DNA of 64,000 nucleotides from an uncultured Alphaproteobacteria bacterium (GTDB lineage Bacteria > Pseudomonadota > Alphaproteobacteria > Rhizobiales > Xanthobacteraceae): NCBI GenBank assembly GCA_963828475.1, contig CAWHFN010000012.1, forward strand, positions 25,439 to 89,438, given 5' to 3'. How positions within the stretch are numbered: position 1 is the first letter of the stretch; the number at the start of each line of letters is the position of its first letter. Positions 12,402 through 32,175 of the stretch are shown one piece after another. The notes beneath the pieces are model-generated. The model had not been told where the DNA came from. It worked only from the letters and a program-made list of their open reading frames with translations, and ran no database searches. Position numbers and translations under genes: made by a program.

Positions 12402-13019
12402 ATGATGGGGCGTGGGCTCGCGTTGTTACTCGTAGGACTGCTCGGCGGCTGCATGCAAGCGACGCTTGCGCCGTCATCGAATGCCAGTTTGACCGCAAGG
12501 GATCGGCAGTTGCTCGCCCACCCGCCTTATGCGCAGGCGAGCATTCCCGAAACATATCGCCGACATATTGTCGACTACACGCGCAGGGAGCAGCCGGGCA
12601 CCATCCTGGTCGATACCAACGCGCGTTTTCTCTACTACGTCCTGCCGGGCGGCAAGGCGATCCGCTATGGCGTGACGGTGGGGGAAGAAGCGCTGGCCTG
12701 GTCAGGCGTCGCCACGGTTGGCCGCATGGCTGAATGGCCGGATTGGATCCCGACGGCGGAGATCCAGGCGCGGCTCGGCCCCTACCCGAAGCGCATTGCC
12801 GGAGGTCCGGCCAATCCGCTGGGCGCGCGGGCGCTCTATCTTTACGAGGGCAACAAGGACACCCTGTACCGCATCCATGGCACCAACCAGCCGGAATATA
12901 TCGGCCATGCCATCTCGTCCGGCTGCATCCGCATGACCAACGAGGACGTTATCGATCTCGTGAACCGGGTGAAGCCAGGCGCGATCGTCGTCGTCCTCCC
13001 GCCGGGCCGGAGTGCGTAG
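12402..13019 (+). CDS. L,D-transpeptidase (YkuD/ErfK family) lipoprotein
   Basis: LLGGC lipobox, NPLGARALYL and YRIHGT…SSGCIRM catalytic motif; RBS GGAGG. Confidence 0.9.
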   Translation: MMGRGLALLLVGLLGGCMQATLAPSSNASLTARDRQLLAHPPYAQASIPETYRRHIVDYTRREQPGTILVDTNARFLYYVLPGGKAIRYGVTVGEEALAWSGVATVGRMAEWPDWIPTAEIQARLGPYPKRIAGGPANPLGARALYLYEGNKDTLYRIHGTNQPEYIGHAISSGCIRMTNEDVIDLVNRVKPGAIVVVLPPGRSA

Positions 13020-24916: not shown

Positions 24917-25551
24917 TTACCACCTCAGGATACGCCTGCCGGCGAAATAGCCGGCCAGCACCACGGAGCCGATGGCGAGTGGATACCAGGTGATGACGAA
25001 CAACGGACTGTCGTCGAAGCAGTTCGCCGCATAGAATACGGCTGCAAGGCTGCCCGCAGCAAGACCAGCCGCCGCGCCGGCCAATCCCGGATTTGCCGGC
25101 GCACCGCTTTTCAGCGCCATGATGAAGAGCGCGAGCGGACCGCTGGCGAGCAGCGGGATCAATGTCATGCAGTTCGGGGCGTTGCTGCCGACCAGGCGGA
25201 CCGACCAGTCCGATCGCGATGTCGTCAGCAATTCGGCAGCGACGCCGGCGGCAAGCAGCATCAACGGAACGAGCAGCAATCTGGCCCACCAGCCCCGTTC
25301 GAATACCGGCCCGATGCTTCGGTACAATGCGGCCAGAGATACCGCAGCGAGCGGCACGACGACCGCAAATTTGAACAGGAAGCGAACGGTGCGCAGCGCG
25401 GCGTCGATGTCGTCGCGGAAGCCGATCCTGGAGAAGAAAAAATCGCAACAACGGCGATGGCCGGCACGAAGGCCGCCAAGAACGTCAGCCACGGTTTTCG
25501 TCCGACGACCCGGTCGGCAACCAGCGCCTGAATGAAATCTTCCGTTGTCAT
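24917..25551 (-). CDS. NrsF/OsrA-like (DUF1109) anti-sigma membrane protein; -1 frameshift in an A6 run near 25437-25442
   Basis: MTTEDFIQAL start, FLFKF, NCMTLIPLLASGP, GAPANPGLAGA and NCFDDSPLFVITWY motifs; 635 nt, one short of 212 codons. Confidence 0.75.
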
Positions 25552-25628
25552 CGCAAGATATCCCTGCAGAGCCTGCAAGCGGCCTTCGCAGTGCCGACGA
25601 GGCTGCGCCCGATAGTCCCGTCCACTAC

Positions 25629-25654
25629 TTCGCGCGGACCTCGCCGAATGTTAC
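25629..25654 (-). promoter_or_regulatory. SigF/EcfF-type ECF promoter (GTAACA-N16-CGAA)
   Basis: Exact spacing on the minus strand, 78 nt upstream of the DUF1109 gene; matches the GTAAC-N16-CGAA consensus recalled for Caulobacter SigF and B. japonicum EcfF. Confidence 0.65.
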
Positions 25655-25701
25655 TCACCTCCACAGTTCGCCGAACAAAAGGTCAAAACCTCCAGGAAAG
25701 A

Positions 25702-26238
25702 TCAGGGCCTCGGGGCGAGTTGCTCCAGCGTTTTGCGCACCTGATCGTGGTGCCTCCGTCGCGCGATCCATTCCTCCAGCGACAGCTTGCCGGGTCCACC
25801 CAACGCCAGCGCCACCAGCCCAGCCAGATAAAGCAGCAGGATTTCGTAGCCGACCGACCCGAATCTGATTCCGGTTTCGGTGACTTCCGCGAGCTTCACC
25901 GAGAAGAACCCGTATGGCAGGTGGACCGTAACGAGCGCCGTCAGCAGAACGCCCGCCATCGGTATGCTGACCCACGGGATCAATACGCCAAGCATCACCG
26001 CCGCGCCCCCGATCAGTTCCGTCAGCGTCGCCGCCCATGCCGCCAACTCGGGCGCGGGGACGCCGAGCGTGTGCAGAACGACCGCGAAAGTCTCCGGGCC
26101 ACGCGAGAACTTGGCATAGCCATGGGCCATGAAGCCGTAGCCGACCGCAAGGCGGATCGGCAGCGGCGCCCAGGCGGCAAGCGCGGGCATCAATGACGTC
26201 GAGGCTTTCTCGGAAGGCGGGCTTGGAATTTTCATCAT
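25702..26238 (-). CDS. DoxX family membrane protein
   Basis: RLAVGYGFMAHGYAK, ELIGGAAVMLG, GYEILL and GPGKLSLE motifs; start 26238. Confidence 0.85.
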   Translation of the reverse strand: MMKIPSPPSEKASTSLMPALAAWAPLPIRLAVGYGFMAHGYAKFSRGPETFAVVLHTLGVPAPELAAWAATLTELIGGAAVMLGVLIPWVSIPMAGVLLTALVTVHLPYGFFSVKLAEVTETGIRFGSVGYEILLLYLAGLVALALGGPGKLSLEEWIARRRHHDQVRKTLEQLAPRP

Positions 26239-26286
26239 TTCTATTCCGATTGTTGGTTGACGGTCATCGCGCATCAAGGCGCGCCT

Positions 26287-26303
26287 CCTTAAGCCAGCCT
26301 TAA
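26287..26303. promoter_or_regulatory. OmpR-family tandem box CCTTAAGCCAGCCTTAA, copy upstream of doxX
   Basis: Identical to 29583-29599; 11-bp periodic direct repeat. Confidence 0.7.
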
Positions 26304-26339
26304 ATCGCGACGGCGCGGGCATCACCCGATCGATCACGC

Positions 26340-27005
26340 TCAGAGAACCACGACCTTGGCGCCGAGCGGAACGCGGGCATAGAGATCGATGACGTCCTGG
26401 TTCATCATGCGGATGCAGCCGGAGGAAACCGCCTTGCCGATGCTGTCGGGCTCGGTCGTGCCATGGATCCGGTAGCGCGTGTCCTGCCCGTTCCTGAACA
26501 GGTAGAGCGCCCTGGCGCCGAGCGGATTTCCCGCGCCGCCGTCCATGCCGCCGGCCCACTTCGCGTAGCGTTTCGGCTCGCGCGCGATCATGGCCGGCGT
26601 CGGCGTCCAATGCGGCCATTCCTTCTTCTCCTGCACCGTGCCCGTGCCCGCAAAGGCCAGCCCTTCGCGGCCGACGCCGACGCCGTAACGGATGGCCTTG
26701 CCGCCTTTCTGGACCAGATAGAGAAAGCGCTTGTGGGGGTCGACCACGACGGTGCCAGGCGGGTTCGTCGAGCGATAGTCGACGATCTGCTTGAGGTATT
26801 GAGGATCGACATGCGATGTGTCGACGGCGTCCACCGCAAATTTCTCGGCCGCGCGCGCGGCGTAATGCGCGGTCACCGGCGACGGAACGCCTGAAAATTC
26901 GGAGTTTCGTAGCCCGTCGCCGGTGACCGCGCATCCGGCAAGGGCGAGCGACAGCAGCAATGCGGCGAGCCGCCGGCGTGCCTGTCGAGCGAACAGGTTC
27001 ATCAT
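26340..27005 (-). CDS. L,D-transpeptidase (YkuD family) lipoprotein
   Basis: LAGC lipobox, NPLGARALYL, YRIHGT…SSGCIRM. Confidence 0.9.
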   Translation of the reverse strand: MMNLFARQARRRLAALLLSLALAGCAVTGDGLRNSEFSGVPSPVTAHYAARAAEKFAVDAVDTSHVDPQYLKQIVDYRSTNPPGTVVVDPHKRFLYLVQKGGKAIRYGVGVGREGLAFAGTGTVQEKKEWPHWTPTPAMIAREPKRYAKWAGGMDGGAGNPLGARALYLFRNGQDTRYRIHGTTEPDSIGKAVSSGCIRMMNQDVIDLYARVPLGAKVVVL

Positions 27006-27041
27006 GATTTCGGTATCCGGATTAGGTTTGTGCAGCCTGGA

Positions 27042-27686
27042 CTATTTGGTCGTCTTCGCCCGCGCCCGCGCATCCGCCACGACCTTGATGAAGCCGTCAT
27101 AGTTGAGCGCCTGGTTGACCTTGTAGGCGCCGACCAGGAAGCCGGGAGTGCCTTGCAGGCCGATCGCGTCGGCAATGCTCAGGTTGCGCTTGATCAGGCG
27201 CAGGATGTCATCGGCGTGCGCCGCGATATCGGCGTCGAGCCGCGGCTGGTCGACGCCGGTCTTTCGGACCGCCTCCAGCATCTGCTCCCGGGAGATGCCG
27301 TAGCCCGGGATATCCATCAGCGCATGGTGAACCGGCAGATATTGGTCCTGATATTTCGCACCCAGCGCCAGCCGGGCGCCGACGATCGAGGTCTCGGCCA
27401 GGATCGGCCAGTCCTTGTAGACGAGGCGGATATTGCCGTCGGCCTTGACGATCTTTTCAAGGCTCTTTGCCGCCATCTTGCAGTACGGGCAGTTGTAGTC
27501 GAAGAAATCGACAACGGTGAGATCGCCATCGGGATTTCCAGCCACCGGCGCGTCCGGATCGTTCAGGATCATGTCGTGCGTGATGTGATTGTCGTCAGCG
27601 CGCGCCTGTCCTGGAATGACGAGTACGGCGGACATCGCCGCCAAGCGCAGGAATCCGGCGCGAGATATCGGATCGAGCATGTTCAT
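27042..27686 (-). CDS. DsbA-family (Com1/ScsC-like) thioredoxin-fold oxidoreductase
   Basis: FFDYNCPYC active site, YKDWPIL and GTPGF cis-Pro loop; export signal; RBS GGAG. Confidence 0.85.
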   Translation of the reverse strand: MNMLDPISRAGFLRLAAMSAVLVIPGQARADDNHITHDMILNDPDAPVAGNPDGDLTVVDFFDYNCPYCKMAAKSLEKIVKADGNIRLVYKDWPILAETSIVGARLALGAKYQDQYLPVHHALMDIPGYGISREQMLEAVRKTGVDQPRLDADIAAHADDILRLIKRNLSIADAIGLQGTPGFLVGAYKVNQALNYDGFIKVVADARARAKTTK

Positions 27687-27701
27687 TTCTCCTTGAAGGG
27701 G

Positions 27702-29537
27702 TTAGACGCGTGAGGCCTTGATGCGTGAGACCTTGGCGATCTTGCCGAGGAACCCATCGACGCCGATGTCGCCCACGACGCGCGCCTCGGCGATCTCGGT
27801 TCCGTCGGGATTGAGGAAGACGATCGTCGGCGGCCCGACCACCGCGAAACGCTGCATCAGATTTTTGCTCGACAGGTCGAAATGGGTGAGGTCGGCGCGA
27901 ATGAGCAGCATGCCGCGAAGCCGCTGCTGCACCTCGTCGCGGGCAAAGATGTTTTGCTCCATGAGCCGGCATTCGGTGCACCAGTCGGCCGAAAAATCGA
28001 CCATGATGGCCGTGCCCTGCTTGCGGCCGAGGTCGATCGCCTTGTCGAGTTCGGCTTCATTGGACACGACCTGGAAACCGCCGGCGCGGGCGTCCGGGGC
28101 CGAGGCGACCAGGCCGGCGGAAATCAGGGGCCGCAGCGGCCCATAGTCGGAGAGCGCGGCTCCGATGACGAGGACACAACCGTAAAACAGCGCCAGCACG
28201 CCGGAGGCGGCTCTCGCAAGGTTGGCCGGCCGCCACCGCGGCTCCTCAAACAGCGAGGGAACATCGAGGTAGAGGCCGACTGCGATACACAATCCGCCCG
28301 ATGCGGTCGCGGTTAGCGCGACCGGCAAAACGCGCGAAGCCATCCAGATCGCCAGCGCGACGAAGATGAAGCCGAAAATATGCTTCACACGCAACAGCCA
28401 TGCACCCGAGCGCGGCAGTATCCGTGTGCCGAGCACGCCGAACGCGATCAGCGGAAGCCCCATGCCGAGCCCGAGCGAGAACAGCGCCAGCGAACCGCGC
28501 AGCACATCGCCGGTTTGCGCCACATACACCAGCGCCGCGGCGAGTGGCGGCGTCACGCATGGACCGACAATCAGCGCCGATCCAAAGCCCATAAGTGCGG
28601 CGCCGCCGATCGACCCTTTGCTTCCGGCTGCCGCCGTCAGCCTCGCGGTCCAGGATTGCGGCAACTGCAATTCGTAAAGACCAAACATCGATAGCCCGAG
28701 GGCGACAAATGCCGCACTCATGGCCAGCACAGCCGGCGGCGTCTGCAGCGATGCCTGCAGATTTTCGCCGGACCAGGCAACGAAGATTCCAAGCGTGCCG
28801 TACGCTGTCGCCATCGCCAGAACGTAGGACACGGAGAGCACGAAACTGCGCGGCACGGATATACGGCCACCGGCGCGTGCGAGCATTCCCGACAGAATCG
28901 GAATCATCGGAAACACGCAGGGCGTCAGCGACAACAGCAGTCCGAATCCCAAGAATGCCAGCACCGTCGAAGCAAGGCTGCCGCCGAGCGTGCCGGCCTC
29001 GGTTTCGAGGCCGCCCGACGACGAAGGCGTCCAGGTCGGAACGTCGGGATTATCCTCGTTGCCGCCATGGGTCGGCGGGGGCATCGTCGCGCTTCCCGCC
29101 TGCGCGTCCTCGATCAGCAATGTCGCGAGGTCGATAGCCTTCGAGATTGGCGGGTAGCAGATCGAATTTTCAGCGCAGCCCTGATAGGTGACGACGATGC
29201 GACCCTTCTCCGGCAGCAATTCCGCCGGTACCGTCGCGATGCCCGTGCCGTGATAGACTTCGGTCAGACCGAAATTCGGATCGTCTTTGGGGTCGCCCTT
29301 TTCCGCCGCGATCCTGATGCGCTGGCCAGCGAGGGTGACGGCAATCCGGTCACGATAGAGGTAGTGGCCGGGGGCGATCGACCAGGTCAGTTCGATCCCC
29401 TCCTCCTCATCCAGTTGCGCGCGGAGCTGGAAGGCCTGATCCGCCGGCATCGGCGTCGCCGCCCAAACGGAACCGGCGGCAGCCATCACAAGCCTCAGCA
29501 GCAACGTAACGAAACCGGCAATGCGAACGTAGGGCAT
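27702..29537 (-). CDS. dsbD: Thiol:disulfide interchange protein DsbD
   Basis: Three redox modules: QGCAENSICYPP, LTPCVFPM/GPCVTPP and ADWCTEC; start ATG 29537 after AGAAGG. Confidence 0.92.
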   Translation of the reverse strand: MPYVRIAGFVTLLLRLVMAAAGSVWAATPMPADQAFQLRAQLDEEEGIELTWSIAPGHYLYRDRIAVTLAGQRIRIAAEKGDPKDDPNFGLTEVYHGTGIATVPAELLPEKGRIVVTYQGCAENSICYPPISKAIDLATLLIEDAQAGSATMPPPTHGGNEDNPDVPTWTPSSSGGLETEAGTLGGSLASTVLAFLGFGLLLSLTPCVFPMIPILSGMLARAGGRISVPRSFVLSVSYVLAMATAYGTLGIFVAWSGENLQASLQTPPAVLAMSAAFVALGLSMFGLYELQLPQSWTARLTAAAGSKGSIGGAALMGFGSALIVGPCVTPPLAAALVYVAQTGDVLRGSLALFSLGLGMGLPLIAFGVLGTRILPRSGAWLLRVKHIFGFIFVALAIWMASRVLPVALTATASGGLCIAVGLYLDVPSLFEEPRWRPANLARAASGVLALFYGCVLVIGAALSDYGPLRPLISAGLVASAPDARAGGFQVVSNEAELDKAIDLGRKQGTAIMVDFSADWCTECRLMEQNIFARDEVQQRLRGMLLIRADLTHFDLSSKNLMQRFAVVGPPTIVFLNPDGTEIAEARVVGDIGVDGFLGKIAKVSRIKASRV

Positions 29538-29582
29538 GGGGTACCTTCTGTGAACGATCCGGCGGCCCATGTGGCCTTGCGA

Positions 29583-29599
29583 CCTTAAGCCAGCCTTAA
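29583..29599. promoter_or_regulatory. OmpR-family tandem box CCTTAAGCCAGCCTTAA in the dsbD/response regulator divergent promoter
   Basis: CTTAAG-N5-CTTAAG; identical to 26287-26303. Confidence 0.75.
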
Positions 29600-29641
29600 G
29601 CCTGGAAGCCGACGCGGAAGTCCAAACGGGGAGCGGCTTGC

Positions 29642-30307
29642 ATGCGGATTTTGGTTGTTGAAGATGACCCGGTGCTCTCGGACGGATTGAAGGTCGGGCT
29701 CGGGCTATACGGCGCGACGCTCGACATCGTCGCCAGTTGCGCCGACGGTCACGCGGCGCTTGCGGCGGACGAATTCGACGCACTGGTTCTCGATCTGATG
29801 CTGCCGGACGGGTCTGGCCTCGATCTGTTGGCCGCGCTGCGCTCGCGCGGCGACCGCACTCCGGTGCTGCTGTTGACCGCGCTCGACGAAGTCGCTGACC
29901 GCATCAGGGGATTGGATGCCGGGGCGGACGACTATCTCGGCAAACCCTTCGATCTGGAGGAGCTTGCCGCCCGTGTCCGTGCCATCAGCCGGCGGAATGA
30001 GGGCCGCGCCTCGCCCCAGGCGTCCTACAATGGTGTGACGCTCAACCTCGCCCGACTGACCGTTACCGTCAGTGGAACATGCATCGGTCTTTCCCGCCGC
30101 GAGTTCGCCGTTCTCGCAGCGCTGATGGACCGGCCAGGCGCGGTTTTGTCCAAGAGCGACCTGGAAGCAAAGCTCTACGGCTGGCAGGAAGAAGTCGAAA
30201 GCAATACCGTCGAAGTCCACGTCCATAAATTGCGCACGAAAATCGGACGGACGAAGATCGAAACCCTGCGCGGGATCGGGTACCGGATGAGGCCCGTCGC
30301 CCCATGA
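29642..30307 (+). CDS. OmpR/PmrA/QseB-family response regulator (DsbR-like)
   Basis: LVVEDD, LDLMLPD, GADDYLGKPF and winged-helix VEVHVHKLRTK…TLRGIGY. Confidence 0.92.
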   Translation: MRILVVEDDPVLSDGLKVGLGLYGATLDIVASCADGHAALAADEFDALVLDLMLPDGSGLDLLAALRSRGDRTPVLLLTALDEVADRIRGLDAGADDYLGKPFDLEELAARVRAISRRNEGRASPQASYNGVTLNLARLTVTVSGTCIGLSRREFAVLAALMDRPGAVLSKSDLEAKLYGWQEEVESNTVEVHVHKLRTKIGRTKIETLRGIGYRMRPVAP

Positions 30308-31659
30308 ATTCGCTGAGAAGAAAACTCTTCCTGATCCTTGTCGCGGCCACCAGCCTGATATGGCTCGCCGCGACCTGCTGGATTTACGTCGGCGCCAGGC
30401 GGGAAGTCGAAAGCGTGCTGGACGCAAGACTGCAGGAAGCGGCGCGCATGGTGCTGTCGCTCGCGGGCAACGGCGTCGGTACCGCACAAAAGGGAGCAGA
30501 CCCCGGACAGGCTCCGGAGATCCTGAGTTACGAGCGACAGCTTTCCTGCCAGATATGGTCACTCGACGGCCGGCTGGTGGCGCGCTCCAGTGGAGCGCCG
30601 AACGAAAGCCTGAGCGACAGGAGAGCGGGCTTCTCCGAACGCCTCATCAACGGAGAGACGTGGCGCGTCTTTACGGCGGAAGACGGCGCCAAGGGCGTTC
30701 GCGTTCTGGTGGGAGACCGGCTCGGCCTGCGCGACCATTTCGTCGCGGAAATCATGAAGGGCATTCTCGCGCCGATGGCTCTTACGGTCCCATTGCTCGG
30801 ATTCCTGATCTGGGCAAGCCTCAATCGCGGGCTACGTCCGTTGCGGGGGCTCGCCGAAGAACTGGCGCGCAGAAGCGCCGACGACATGCGCCCCGTCGAG
30901 ACTGGCAAAATACCAACGGAAATCCGGCCGGTCATCGACTCGCTCAATTCCCTTTTCGCCAGGGTCCAGGATGCGTTGCGGCACGAGCGGGATCTCACCG
31001 CTTTCGCCGCACATGAGTTGCGGACGCCGCTGGCAGGATTGCGGACCCAGGCCCAGGTCGCAATGGCGGCCCGTGACGAGACAACGCGCGCCACGGCGCT
31101 CCGTCAAATCCTTGTCGGCGTCGATCGTACCACCCGCCTCGTTCGCCAGTTGCTCGCCATCGCGAAACTCGATTCGGCGCCGGAGACGATCCGGGCGAAC
31201 CAGATCAGCATCGGGGGCGTGATCGAAGAGGTCATCGACGCGCTGCCACTGTCGGACCGGGCCGTCCCCGTTACCGTCGATCCGGCCCTGACGGGCACCA
31301 TGGTTACGGCCAACCGGGAATTCCTTCTGCTGGCGGTTCGCAACCTGCATGAGAATGCCGCACGTCACATGTCGCAGCCGGGCGCCATTCGATGGTCGAT
31401 GGAGAAGGAATCCGATGCGCTTGCCGTTTATGTCGACGATGAGGGCCCGGGCATACCGCAGGAAGAGATTGCGCTGGTTACGAACCGTTTTTTCCGCGGC
31501 CGCAACAAGAGCCCGCTTGGGAGCGGCCTCGGACTATCAATTGTCGAGCTCGCCCTGCGCGCCAGCGGCGCACGGCTGATCCTCCAGAACAGAAGAGATG
31601 GGACTGGCCTGCGGGCGCAAATCGTATGGAGGCTCACGCCGGACGGCGTGACGCGGTGA
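30304..31659 (+). CDS. QseC-family sensor histidine kinase (DsbS-like)
   Basis: ATGA overlap with the regulator; periplasmic YERQLSCQIW (Cys82), HAMP, AAHELRTPL H-box, DEGPG and GSGLGL. Confidence 0.9.
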   Translation: MNSLRRKLFLILVAATSLIWLAATCWIYVGARREVESVLDARLQEAARMVLSLAGNGVGTAQKGADPGQAPEILSYERQLSCQIWSLDGRLVARSSGAPNESLSDRRAGFSERLINGETWRVFTAEDGAKGVRVLVGDRLGLRDHFVAEIMKGILAPMALTVPLLGFLIWASLNRGLRPLRGLAEELARRSADDMRPVETGKIPTEIRPVIDSLNSLFARVQDALRHERDLTAFAAHELRTPLAGLRTQAQVAMAARDETTRATALRQILVGVDRTTRLVRQLLAIAKLDSAPETIRANQISIGGVIEEVIDALPLSDRAVPVTVDPALTGTMVTANREFLLLAVRNLHENAARHMSQPGAIRWSMEKESDALAVYVDDEGPGIPQEEIALVTNRFFRGRNKSPLGSGLGLSIVELALRASGARLILQNRRDGTGLRAQIVWRLTPDGVTR

Positions 31660-31713: not shown

Positions 31714-32175
31714 ATGCGCATTGAAGTCTACCGTGCAGACCGCAGCTCGCTGCTGCCTCTGTTTGATCTTGCCGACGATTCCCGGGCACAGATTTGCAGT
31801 TACATTTCCCGCGGCAAAGTGCTCGTCGCCCGCGCCAGCGATACCGTGATTGGGCACCTGCAAATCCTCGAGACTGACGCTGCCGGCGTATTCGAGCTCA
31901 AGAGCATGGCGGTGGAGGCGGGCCACCAAGGCCAGGGCATCGGACGCAGCCTCGTCGAGGCGGCGGTCACTCATTGTCGTCTCCGCGATGGTCATCGGCT
32001 GTTTGTCTCGACGGCCACTGCCGATATCGGCAATCTGCGCTTCTACCAGCGTCAGGGCTTCCGCATGTACCGAATCGTGCAGGACGCATTCAGGCCCGAA
32101 GGCGGGTACGCGGAGGGAGTTCTGGTCGACGGAATACCGCTGCGCGACCAGGTGTTTCTCGAACTCCATCTCTGA
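31714..32175 (+). CDS. GNAT N-acetyltransferase
   Basis: MAVEAGHQGQGIGRSLV and NLRFYQRQGF. Confidence 0.85.
   Translation: MRIEVYRADRSSLLPLFDLADDSRAQICSYISRGKVLVARASDTVIGHLQILETDAAGVFELKSMAVEAGHQGQGIGRSLVEAAVTHCRLRDGHRLFVSTATADIGNLRFYQRQGFRMYRIVQDAFRPEGGYAEGVLVDGIPLRDQVFLELHL

Follow-up and report, generated by a model that had tools for sequence, protein, structure and literature searches.

A putative DsbRS-type locus with L,D-transpeptidase cargo in an uncultured member of the Xanthobacteraceae

Genes and features of the locus

The subject of this analysis is a gene cluster at positions 24,917 to 31,659 of a 64,000-nucleotide (nt) stretch of DNA, hereafter the window, from an uncultured soil alphaproteobacterium of the family Xanthobacteraceae (GenBank assembly GCA_963828475.1, contig CAWHFN010000012.1, positions 25,439 to 89,438). 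In this cluster, or island, a two-component regulatory pair diverges from an operon for a protein-disulfide reductase (DsbD), a secreted DsbA-like protein and a lipoprotein L,D-transpeptidase (LDT). The locus is probably an alphaproteobacterial orthologue of the copper-stress system DsbRS-dsbDEG of Pseudomonas, fitted with a different cargo. What can be read from the sequence is the orthology of the sensor, of the regulator and of the DNA site (box) that the regulator is predicted to bind, the structure of the operon, and the co-inheritance of the transpeptidase. Genes were called from an open reading frame listing, from Pfam and NCBIfam profile scans and by direct reading of the window sequence, and these bear out the gene list and order given in an initial annotation of the same DNA. 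The features are as follows.

24917-25551, minus strand: nrsF, anti-sigma gene (PF06532, DUF1109); the Pfam match covers profile positions 33-204 only
25629-25654, minus strand: GTAACA-N16-CGAA, a promoter-like motif of the extracytoplasmic function (ECF) SigF/EcfF type upstream of nrsF, read from the sequence
25702-26238, minus strand: doxX (PF07681; Pfam)
26287-26303, minus strand: DsbR box 2, TTAAGGCTGGCTTAAGG, an exact copy of the core (17 nt) of box 1, between ykuD and doxX
26340-27005, minus strand: ykuD (PF03734), lipoprotein LDT of 221 residues (Pfam, E 7e-24)
27042-27686, minus strand: secreted DsbA-like/ScsC-like protein of the DsbA/Thioredoxin_4 type with a CPYC motif (Pfam Thioredoxin_4/DSBA)
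27702-29537, minus strand: dsbD, three-domain protein-disulfide reductase (Pfam; NCBIfam NF001419)
29583-29600, minus strand: DsbR box 1, CTTAAGGCTGGCTTAAGG, TTAA-N7-TTAA, in the dsbD/regulator intergenic region
29642-30307, plus strand: OmpR-type response regulator, DsbR-type, 221 residues (Pfam Response_reg and Trans_reg_C)
30304-31659, plus strand: DsbS-type sensor histidine kinase, 451 residues (Pfam 2CSK_N/HisKA/HATPase)

The 3' end of the regulator gene and the start of the kinase gene overlap by 4 nt. The minus-strand operon begins with dsbD and ends with ykuD, and the divergence of dsbD from the regulator/kinase pair is found likewise in Pseudomonas and in most of the alphaproteobacterial loci surveyed. 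This survey covered about 15 kb around 41 alphaproteobacterial orthologues of the pair, drawn from 16 GTDB families. Near the pair lie a ykuD gene in 34/41 loci, a DsbA-like gene in 34/41 (CPFC in 20 genes, CPYC in 15) and dsbD in 33/41; doxX is present in 1/41 and nrsF in 0/41. With 11 copies of ykuD per genome (the island gene and 10 paralogues), the linkage expected for this gene by chance is about 2.5%. The recurrence of the same pair with dsbD, a DsbA-like gene and ykuD shows that these genes have not come together by chance. The co-occurrence proposed in the initial annotation thus holds for these three genes and fails for doxX, and its placing of ykuD in the module is supported both by this linkage and by the position of the gene in the dsbD operon.

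The two-component pair and its binding sites

In Pseudomonas aeruginosa, DsbS acts as a phosphatase that is blocked when copper binds its periplasmic domain, and Cys82 is essential; His235 and Ser239 are its catalytic residues, and DsbR, which accepts the phosphate at D51, has a binding site that contains TTAA-N7-TTAA (Yu et al., bioRxiv 10.1101/2020.08.17.255257). In the same account dsbD is the leading gene of the operon that runs divergently from dsbRS. Like that system (PA2479/PA2480), the present one has a divergent OmpR-type regulator and 2CSK_N kinase beside dsbD, with a periplasmic Cys82, a D51 and an H-box histidine, and its intergenic region holds the direct repeat TTAA-N7-TTAA. Hydropathy places hydrophobic segments of the window kinase at about residues 6-31 and 150-173, so that Cys82 (in YERQLSCQIW) should lie in the periplasmic loop between them. 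The H-box AAHELRTPL supplies His237 and Thr241. In the regulator, which is 46-47% identical to Pseudomonas DsbR genes, D51 lies within LVLDLMLPD.

The comparison was made with DsbS of P. poae DSM 14936, a protein of 440 residues with C82, H235 and S239, numbered as published for PA2480. BLASTP gives 31% identity (E 7e-58) and an alignment that is gapless over residues 1-120, with C82 on C82. In the P. poae locus, one of the Pseudomonadaceae loci found by a phylum-wide genome search, dsbD, a dsbE of the Redoxin/TlpA type and a dsbG of the DsbC_N type run divergently from the pair, and the intergenic region has a TTAA-N7-TTAA box, GGTTAATCATCGGTTAATC. The context MACQVSSLRGE around Cys82 is found in 66 named Pseudomonas species, P. 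poae included, within a sample of the best 80 loci, all of them from named species other than P. aeruginosa and mostly from the fluorescens group. On these grounds the pair is judged to be an orthologue of Pseudomonas DsbRS. The DsbRS likeness that had been suggested for it is upheld by the match of Cys82 to Cys82, by D51, by the divergent dsbD and by the published DsbR motif.

Conservation around the putative sensing residue extends well beyond this comparison. A sensor alignment of 12 sequences (A1) from alphaproteobacteria, gammaproteobacteria and other members of the phylum has 14 invariant columns, Cys82 among them, and Cys82 is invariant also in a 41-sequence alignment (A3); the motif CQ[IVL]W is present in 41/41 alphaproteobacterial kinases. 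The periplasmic residues D40, C82, Q83, W120, R121 and D138 are conserved in Pseudomonas and the alphaproteobacteria, and M49 in at least 90%. In a wider set of 84 full-length kinases (the window kinase and 83 proteins among the best 150 sensor-domain hits in a 50%-identity representative library), 44 have Cys at column 82, mostly the better-scoring matches; in the more distant matches the residue is Phe or Tyr, as it is in QseC-like kinases. An AlphaFold2 model of the full-length kinase, with a mean predicted local distance difference test score of 78, assigns Cys82 to the first (81-86) of five strands predicted for the periplasmic domain, preceded by a low-confidence loop (56-78). D40, M49 and D138 are, speculatively, candidate metal co-ligands with Cys82.

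Box 1, which reads CCTTAAGCCAGCCTTAAG in the intergenic sequence 29583-29600, is a direct repeat of the form TTAAG-N6-TTAAG. Its centre is upstream of both genes, some 55 nt from the dsbD ATG and some 50 nt from that of the regulator, so a single box can act on the two divergent promoters; the dsbRS pair is probably autoregulated. Box 2 is centred about 57-60 nt before the doxX start, and both boxes have the sequence TTAAGGCTGGCTTAAGG when read towards the cargo genes. A position weight matrix (PWM) built solely from 47 boxes of other genomes scored box 1 at 35.6 bits, the top site in the genome, and box 2 at 24.3 bits, and no other locus in the 6.46-Mb genome exceeded 14 bits. On this evidence the DsbR regulon of the organism is predicted to be confined to the island, with two putative cargo units, one of dsbD, the ScsC-like gene and ykuD and the other of doxX; a second regulon site, such as one at dsbB, was not detectable by the matrix anywhere in the genome. 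The earlier description of the module as self-contained is thus accurate in a regulatory sense.

The 41 loci hold 56 TTAA-N7-TTAA boxes, 50 of them upstream of a module gene at a distance of no more than 400 nt, mostly 50-60 nt before the estimated start codon. Nearly all loci have one in the dsbD/regulator intergenic position. Twelve boxes lie directly upstream of a ykuD, and a relocated ykuD has a box of its own in five loci (L167, L169, L175, L180 and L080). Among the genes preceded by a box of the form CTTAAG-N5-CTTAAG in other Hyphomicrobiales (L172:720 and 12356; L181:2098; L189:3520) are those for a cytochrome c resembling cbb3 subunit III, a DsrE-like protein, a lipoprotein with a thioredoxin fold and an RND pump of the AcrB type. 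Thiol repair is therefore not the whole of the regulon, whose cargo is predicted to be variable and partly sulfur-related. The DsbR box appears to be a portable tag, behind which cargo as varied as doxX, cytochrome c, DsrE-like proteins and RND pumps is recruited.

Cargo and its relation to known systems

The dsbD product scores 501 bits against NF001419 (cut-off 330), includes a DsbD_N domain and keeps all three cysteine pairs, C121/C127 in the alpha domain, C207/C327 in the membrane domain and CTEC 520-523 in the gamma domain (numbers count one residue upstream of the ATG). Its neighbour has a Thioredoxin_4/DsbA fold with a CPxC motif, as in the ScsC family. The form of this motif, CPYC, is that of the active site of Escherichia coli DsbG. 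The protein has no long N-terminal oligomerisation helix. Its best solved relatives are 3gyk, 4gxz (Salmonella ScsC) and Proteus ScsC, and PDB matches also include 4xvw and 6nen. The gene adjoining it encodes a canonical DsbD, above the NF001419 cut-off, and no ScsB partner. The pairing of a Thioredoxin_4-family, DsbA-fold CPxC protein with a DsbD-type membrane reductase resembles the ScsABCD system of Salmonella, Proteus and Caulobacter, which is induced by copper. However, the present locus has canonical DsbD instead of ScsB, has neither ScsA nor ScsD and co-encodes an LDT, and its control is predicted to lie with DsbRS, whereas ScsABCD is controlled by CpxRA.

The island LDT has the lipobox LAGC and the catalytic His and Cys in the arrangement RIHGT...SSGCIRM, the catalytic motif being SSGCIRM. 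The catalytic cysteine is the only cysteine of the mature protein, and a single cysteine is likewise found in 28/36 of the transpeptidases linked to the pair. In a maximum-likelihood tree, 37 linked transpeptidases group with two unlinked paralogues of this genome (support 86/99), and the eight other paralogues fall outside; the 'linked' label changes state 2 times on this tree, compared with 9.3 times when labels are shuffled. One of the two unlinked paralogues inside the group lies in the window itself, at about 12480-12998 on the plus strand (G000 C12:37918-38436), and is 52% identical to the island enzyme. In four loci (L033, L035, L078 and L190), ykuD is the sole cargo beside the pair.

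DoxX is an inner-membrane protein without cysteines, and its gene is the only doxX in the genome at E 1e-10. It scores 68.6 bits against the NCBIfam HvfX model, and a role as a bufferin/HvfX gene was rejected since this is below the cut-off of 80 and the island has no MNIO or precursor genes. Four metagenomic relatives (L162-L165, with 80-91% kinase identity to the window) share the chromosomal site, in the order kup-kup-motB-motA, nrsF-doxX-[ykuD]-dsbA-dsbD, and divergently regulator-kinase-[GNAT]-tctC. Both DsbR boxes, including the one before doxX, are kept in all four; ykuD is not present in L163-L165. Elsewhere, one further boxed doxX lies beside the pair, in L182. The initial inclusion of doxX in the module is thus correct in that the gene has its own copy of the box; the gene is predicted to be a lineage-specific cargo, found in 1/41 other loci, and not a general member, and it appears to have been recruited by duplication of the box.

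The distribution of the pair is patchy: orthologues are present in 14/121 sampled genomes of the family (this one included), 27/401 of the order and 1/7 of the same genus. The module is therefore accessory. The pair is also found on plasmids of Methylorubrum, Bradyrhizobium, Bosea, Methylosinus, Ensifer, Agrobacterium and others, and those of Bradyrhizobium SK17 and Bosea AS-1 that carry the module are typed as conjugative. The module travels on conjugative plasmids, and the group in which it occurs includes rhizobia, methylotrophs and Brucella relatives. On the Bradyrhizobium sp. SK17 plasmid (L038, NZ_CP025114.1) the module stands back to back with an operon of a sulfur transferase, a peroxiredoxin and an MBL-fold hydrolase, also annotated with an ArsR-family regulator, YeeE/YedE, TauE/SafE and DoxX. 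We read this operon as one for persulfide/sulfite handling; its DoxX is near DsbRS, but in a separate operon.

Parts of this arrangement are already on record. Cognates of dsbRS-dsbD have been shown in many phyla, including Rhizobium with dsbA (Yu et al., Fig. S6, bioRxiv 10.1101/2020.08.17.255257). In the searchable literature, DsbRS is discussed solely for Pseudomonas and no paper joining DsbD, YkuD and copper was found. Thus, the DsbRS-dsbD(-dsbA) core is published, and an LDT as a regular, boxed member of the regulon appears to be undescribed. For this reason the regular boxed LDT, the recruitment of doxX by box duplication and the alphaproteobacterial half-site may be taken as new. The initial statement that the combination was not described therefore stands for the regular LDT and falls for the core. 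The cargo itself departs from that of P. aeruginosa, whose dsbDEG genes are PA2476-2478: a ScsC-like CPYC protein, a lipoprotein LDT and a separately boxed doxX are found here, DsbE (TlpA-like) and DsbG there.

The proposed circuit and its alternatives

A mechanism can be proposed by combining these features with the behaviour of the Pseudomonas system. Without a signal, DsbS would dephosphorylate DsbR, as shown in P. aeruginosa. Binding of copper (or nickel) to the Cys82-dependent periplasmic domain, also shown there, would block the phosphatase, and DsbR phosphorylated at D51 would bind the direct repeat TTAAG-N6-TTAAG. Box 1 would then drive dsbD, the ScsC-like gene, ykuD and probably dsbRS itself, and box 2 would drive doxX. 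DsbD would carry electrons from cytoplasmic thioredoxin to the periplasm and keep the CPYC ScsC-like protein reduced. This protein may repair copper-induced mis-oxidation and shield single-cysteine proteins, of which the co-encoded LDT is the obvious candidate client, and the extra transpeptidase copy may substitute for copper-poisoned enzymes. The last two suggestions draw on the finding that DsbG preserves the catalytic cysteines of E. coli LDTs (PMC10907172) and on the inhibition of these enzymes by copper reported by Peters et al. 2018, as cited in PMC12729407. DoxX is perhaps a quinone-linked membrane redox partner or one in sulfur handling.

The likeness to DsbG protection in E. coli lies in a DsbD-fed CPYC protein together with an LDT that has a single catalytic cysteine. 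In E. coli, however, the genes are unlinked and are not known to be copper-regulated as a unit, whereas here they form one operon with a copper-type sensor, and the putative protective protein here is monomer-like and of ScsC type, without the DsbC_N dimerisation domain. If the proposal is right, the locus family unites two E. coli observations, copper inhibition of LDTs and protection of their cysteine by DsbG, in one copper-type regulon. We found no dedicated genetic system that connects the two. With its pair of identical boxes, its single regulator and its single sensing cysteine, the circuit offers a ready experimental handle.

Several points weigh against reading the locus as a copper-stress system of the Pseudomonas kind. 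Copper as the signal is carried over by analogy from P. aeruginosa, and the DsbS comparison uses P. poae and 65 other named Pseudomonas species as proxies for PA2480, whose published length and residue numbers they share. The half-sites read TTAAG in this locus, against TTAAT in Pseudomonas, and the same box elsewhere precedes the cytochrome c, DsrE and RND-pump genes. That DsbD is the partner of the DsbA-like protein, and the direction in which the latter works (reductase, isomerase or oxidase), we infer; Salmonella ScsC is reported to promote disulfide formation. The single LDT clade has moderate support (86/99) and has two unlinked paralogues of this genome inside it. The phosphatase residue is Thr241 in the window kinase and Ser239 in Pseudomonas. 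Thr is the usual HisKA phosphatase residue. Ser239 is conserved only 'to a lesser extent' (bioRxiv 10.1101/2020.08.17.255257).

A stronger version of the proposal, which we offer tentatively and would not expect to hold in full, is that the DsbRS circuit of the Hyphomicrobiales serves mainly to keep L,D-transpeptidation going under copper stress. The boxed, single-cysteine LDT would be either a copper-tolerant stand-in or the dedicated client of the reducing line from DsbD to the ScsC-like protein. Sensor, regulator and LDT would then suffice as a minimal circuit, as in the four genomes where ykuD is the sole cargo. LDTs do much of the cell-wall cross-linking in rhizobia, methylotrophs and Brucella relatives. 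Were this version true, 3-3 cross-linking, or the tethering of outer-membrane proteins to peptidoglycan, would be directly copper-regulated in bacteria with LDT-dependent polar growth.

The same circuit may instead respond to another signal, such as reactive sulfur species, a thiophilic metal other than copper (nickel, silver or cadmium) or a general thiol or oxidative stress of the periplasm, with which the cargo would then deal, although we consider this unlikely. The DoxX family includes subunits of thiosulfate:quinone oxidoreductase, and the DsrE-like, cytochrome c and RND-pump genes boxed in other genomes point the same way, as do the plasmid copies, which in Bradyrhizobium SK17 adjoin persulfide/sulfite genes and in Bosea AS-1 adjoin ArsR-type regulators. 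P. aeruginosa DsbS also binds nickel, and dsbD is induced by nickel (bioRxiv 10.1101/2020.08.17.255257). On the other hand, copper and nickel are the sole experimentally defined ligands of the sensor family, the periplasmic residues common to Pseudomonas and the alphaproteobacteria (D40, C82, Q83, W120, R121 and D138, with M49 in at least 90%) argue for the same type of ligand, and ScsC relatives are tied to copper tolerance.

The initial annotation had extended the module to all seven genes, with the NrsF anti-sigma factor and its ECF pathway wired to DsbRS. This is very improbable, despite the adjacency of nrsF, doxX and the dsb genes in the window and in L162-L165, the retention in NrsF of both sensing-type cysteines (NCMTLI and NCFDDS) and the lack of a predicted terminator between doxX and nrsF, which would allow read-through from the boxed doxX promoter. 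The gene is not intact: DNA alignment with intact relatives of 211 residues reveals a -1 frameshift, one base being missing at about 25430-25445 near a T6 run (about 25437-25442), which puts the N-terminal 35-40 codons out of frame with the remainder. This frameshift may be a homopolymer sequencing error at the T6 run. The gene nrsF, intact (211 residues) in L163-L165, is truncated differently in L162, a 91% identical relative, which suggests relaxed selection on an orphan gene.

The affinities of nrsF lie with SigF-NrsF of Caulobacter and EcfF-OsrA of Bradyrhizobium, with which it shares the PF06532 fold, a pair of conserved periplasmic cysteines and a promoter-like motif, GTAAC-N16-CGAA. The motif GTAACA-N16-CGAA, which matches the SigF consensus of Caulobacter, is conserved in L162 and L163. 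Unlike those pairs, the island nrsF has no adjoining sigma gene; it scores 56.9 bits in NCBIfam (cut-off 300) and is not an intact open reading frame beside a sigma gene. A canonical pair of an ECF sigma factor (193 residues) and NrsF (214 residues), overlapping by 4 nt, lies elsewhere in the genome (C19:362001-363223), and this sigma factor is likely to read the putative promoter upstream of the island nrsF. Because it has its own SigF-type motif, is frameshifted, is found in none of the 41 other loci and has a canonical sigma-NrsF pair elsewhere in the genome beside it, nrsF is best regarded as a neighbouring, decaying extra anti-sigma copy outside the predicted DsbR circuit.

That the pair might be a generic QseC/PmrB-like two-component system that merely stands beside the dsb genes without regulating them is hardly tenable: its top NCBIfam models are QseC, QseB and PmrA, all below their cut-offs, and the kinase is publicly annotated as QseC, but the box recurs at the same intergenic position in nearly all 41 loci, precedes relocated cargo genes and is unique to the island within the genome, and 9/10 control loci with Phe/Tyr-type relatives have neither a dsbD, dsbA or ykuD neighbour nor a box. 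The exception is L197 (G348:C20:292000-307000, 43% GC), which has Tyr at the Cys82 position and yet has dsbD beside the pair and a box, CTTAAGGGAAAATTAAGG.

A few minor features of the island remain. A scan for sigma-70 promoters in the island gave no match. Recent horizontal acquisition, as judged by base composition, was rejected because the GC content is flat at 0.60-0.66. Between the kinase gene and tctC lies a GNAT acetyltransferase gene (31714-32175, plus strand), present also in L162 and not in L163-L165, which looks like a small indel of unrelated cargo.

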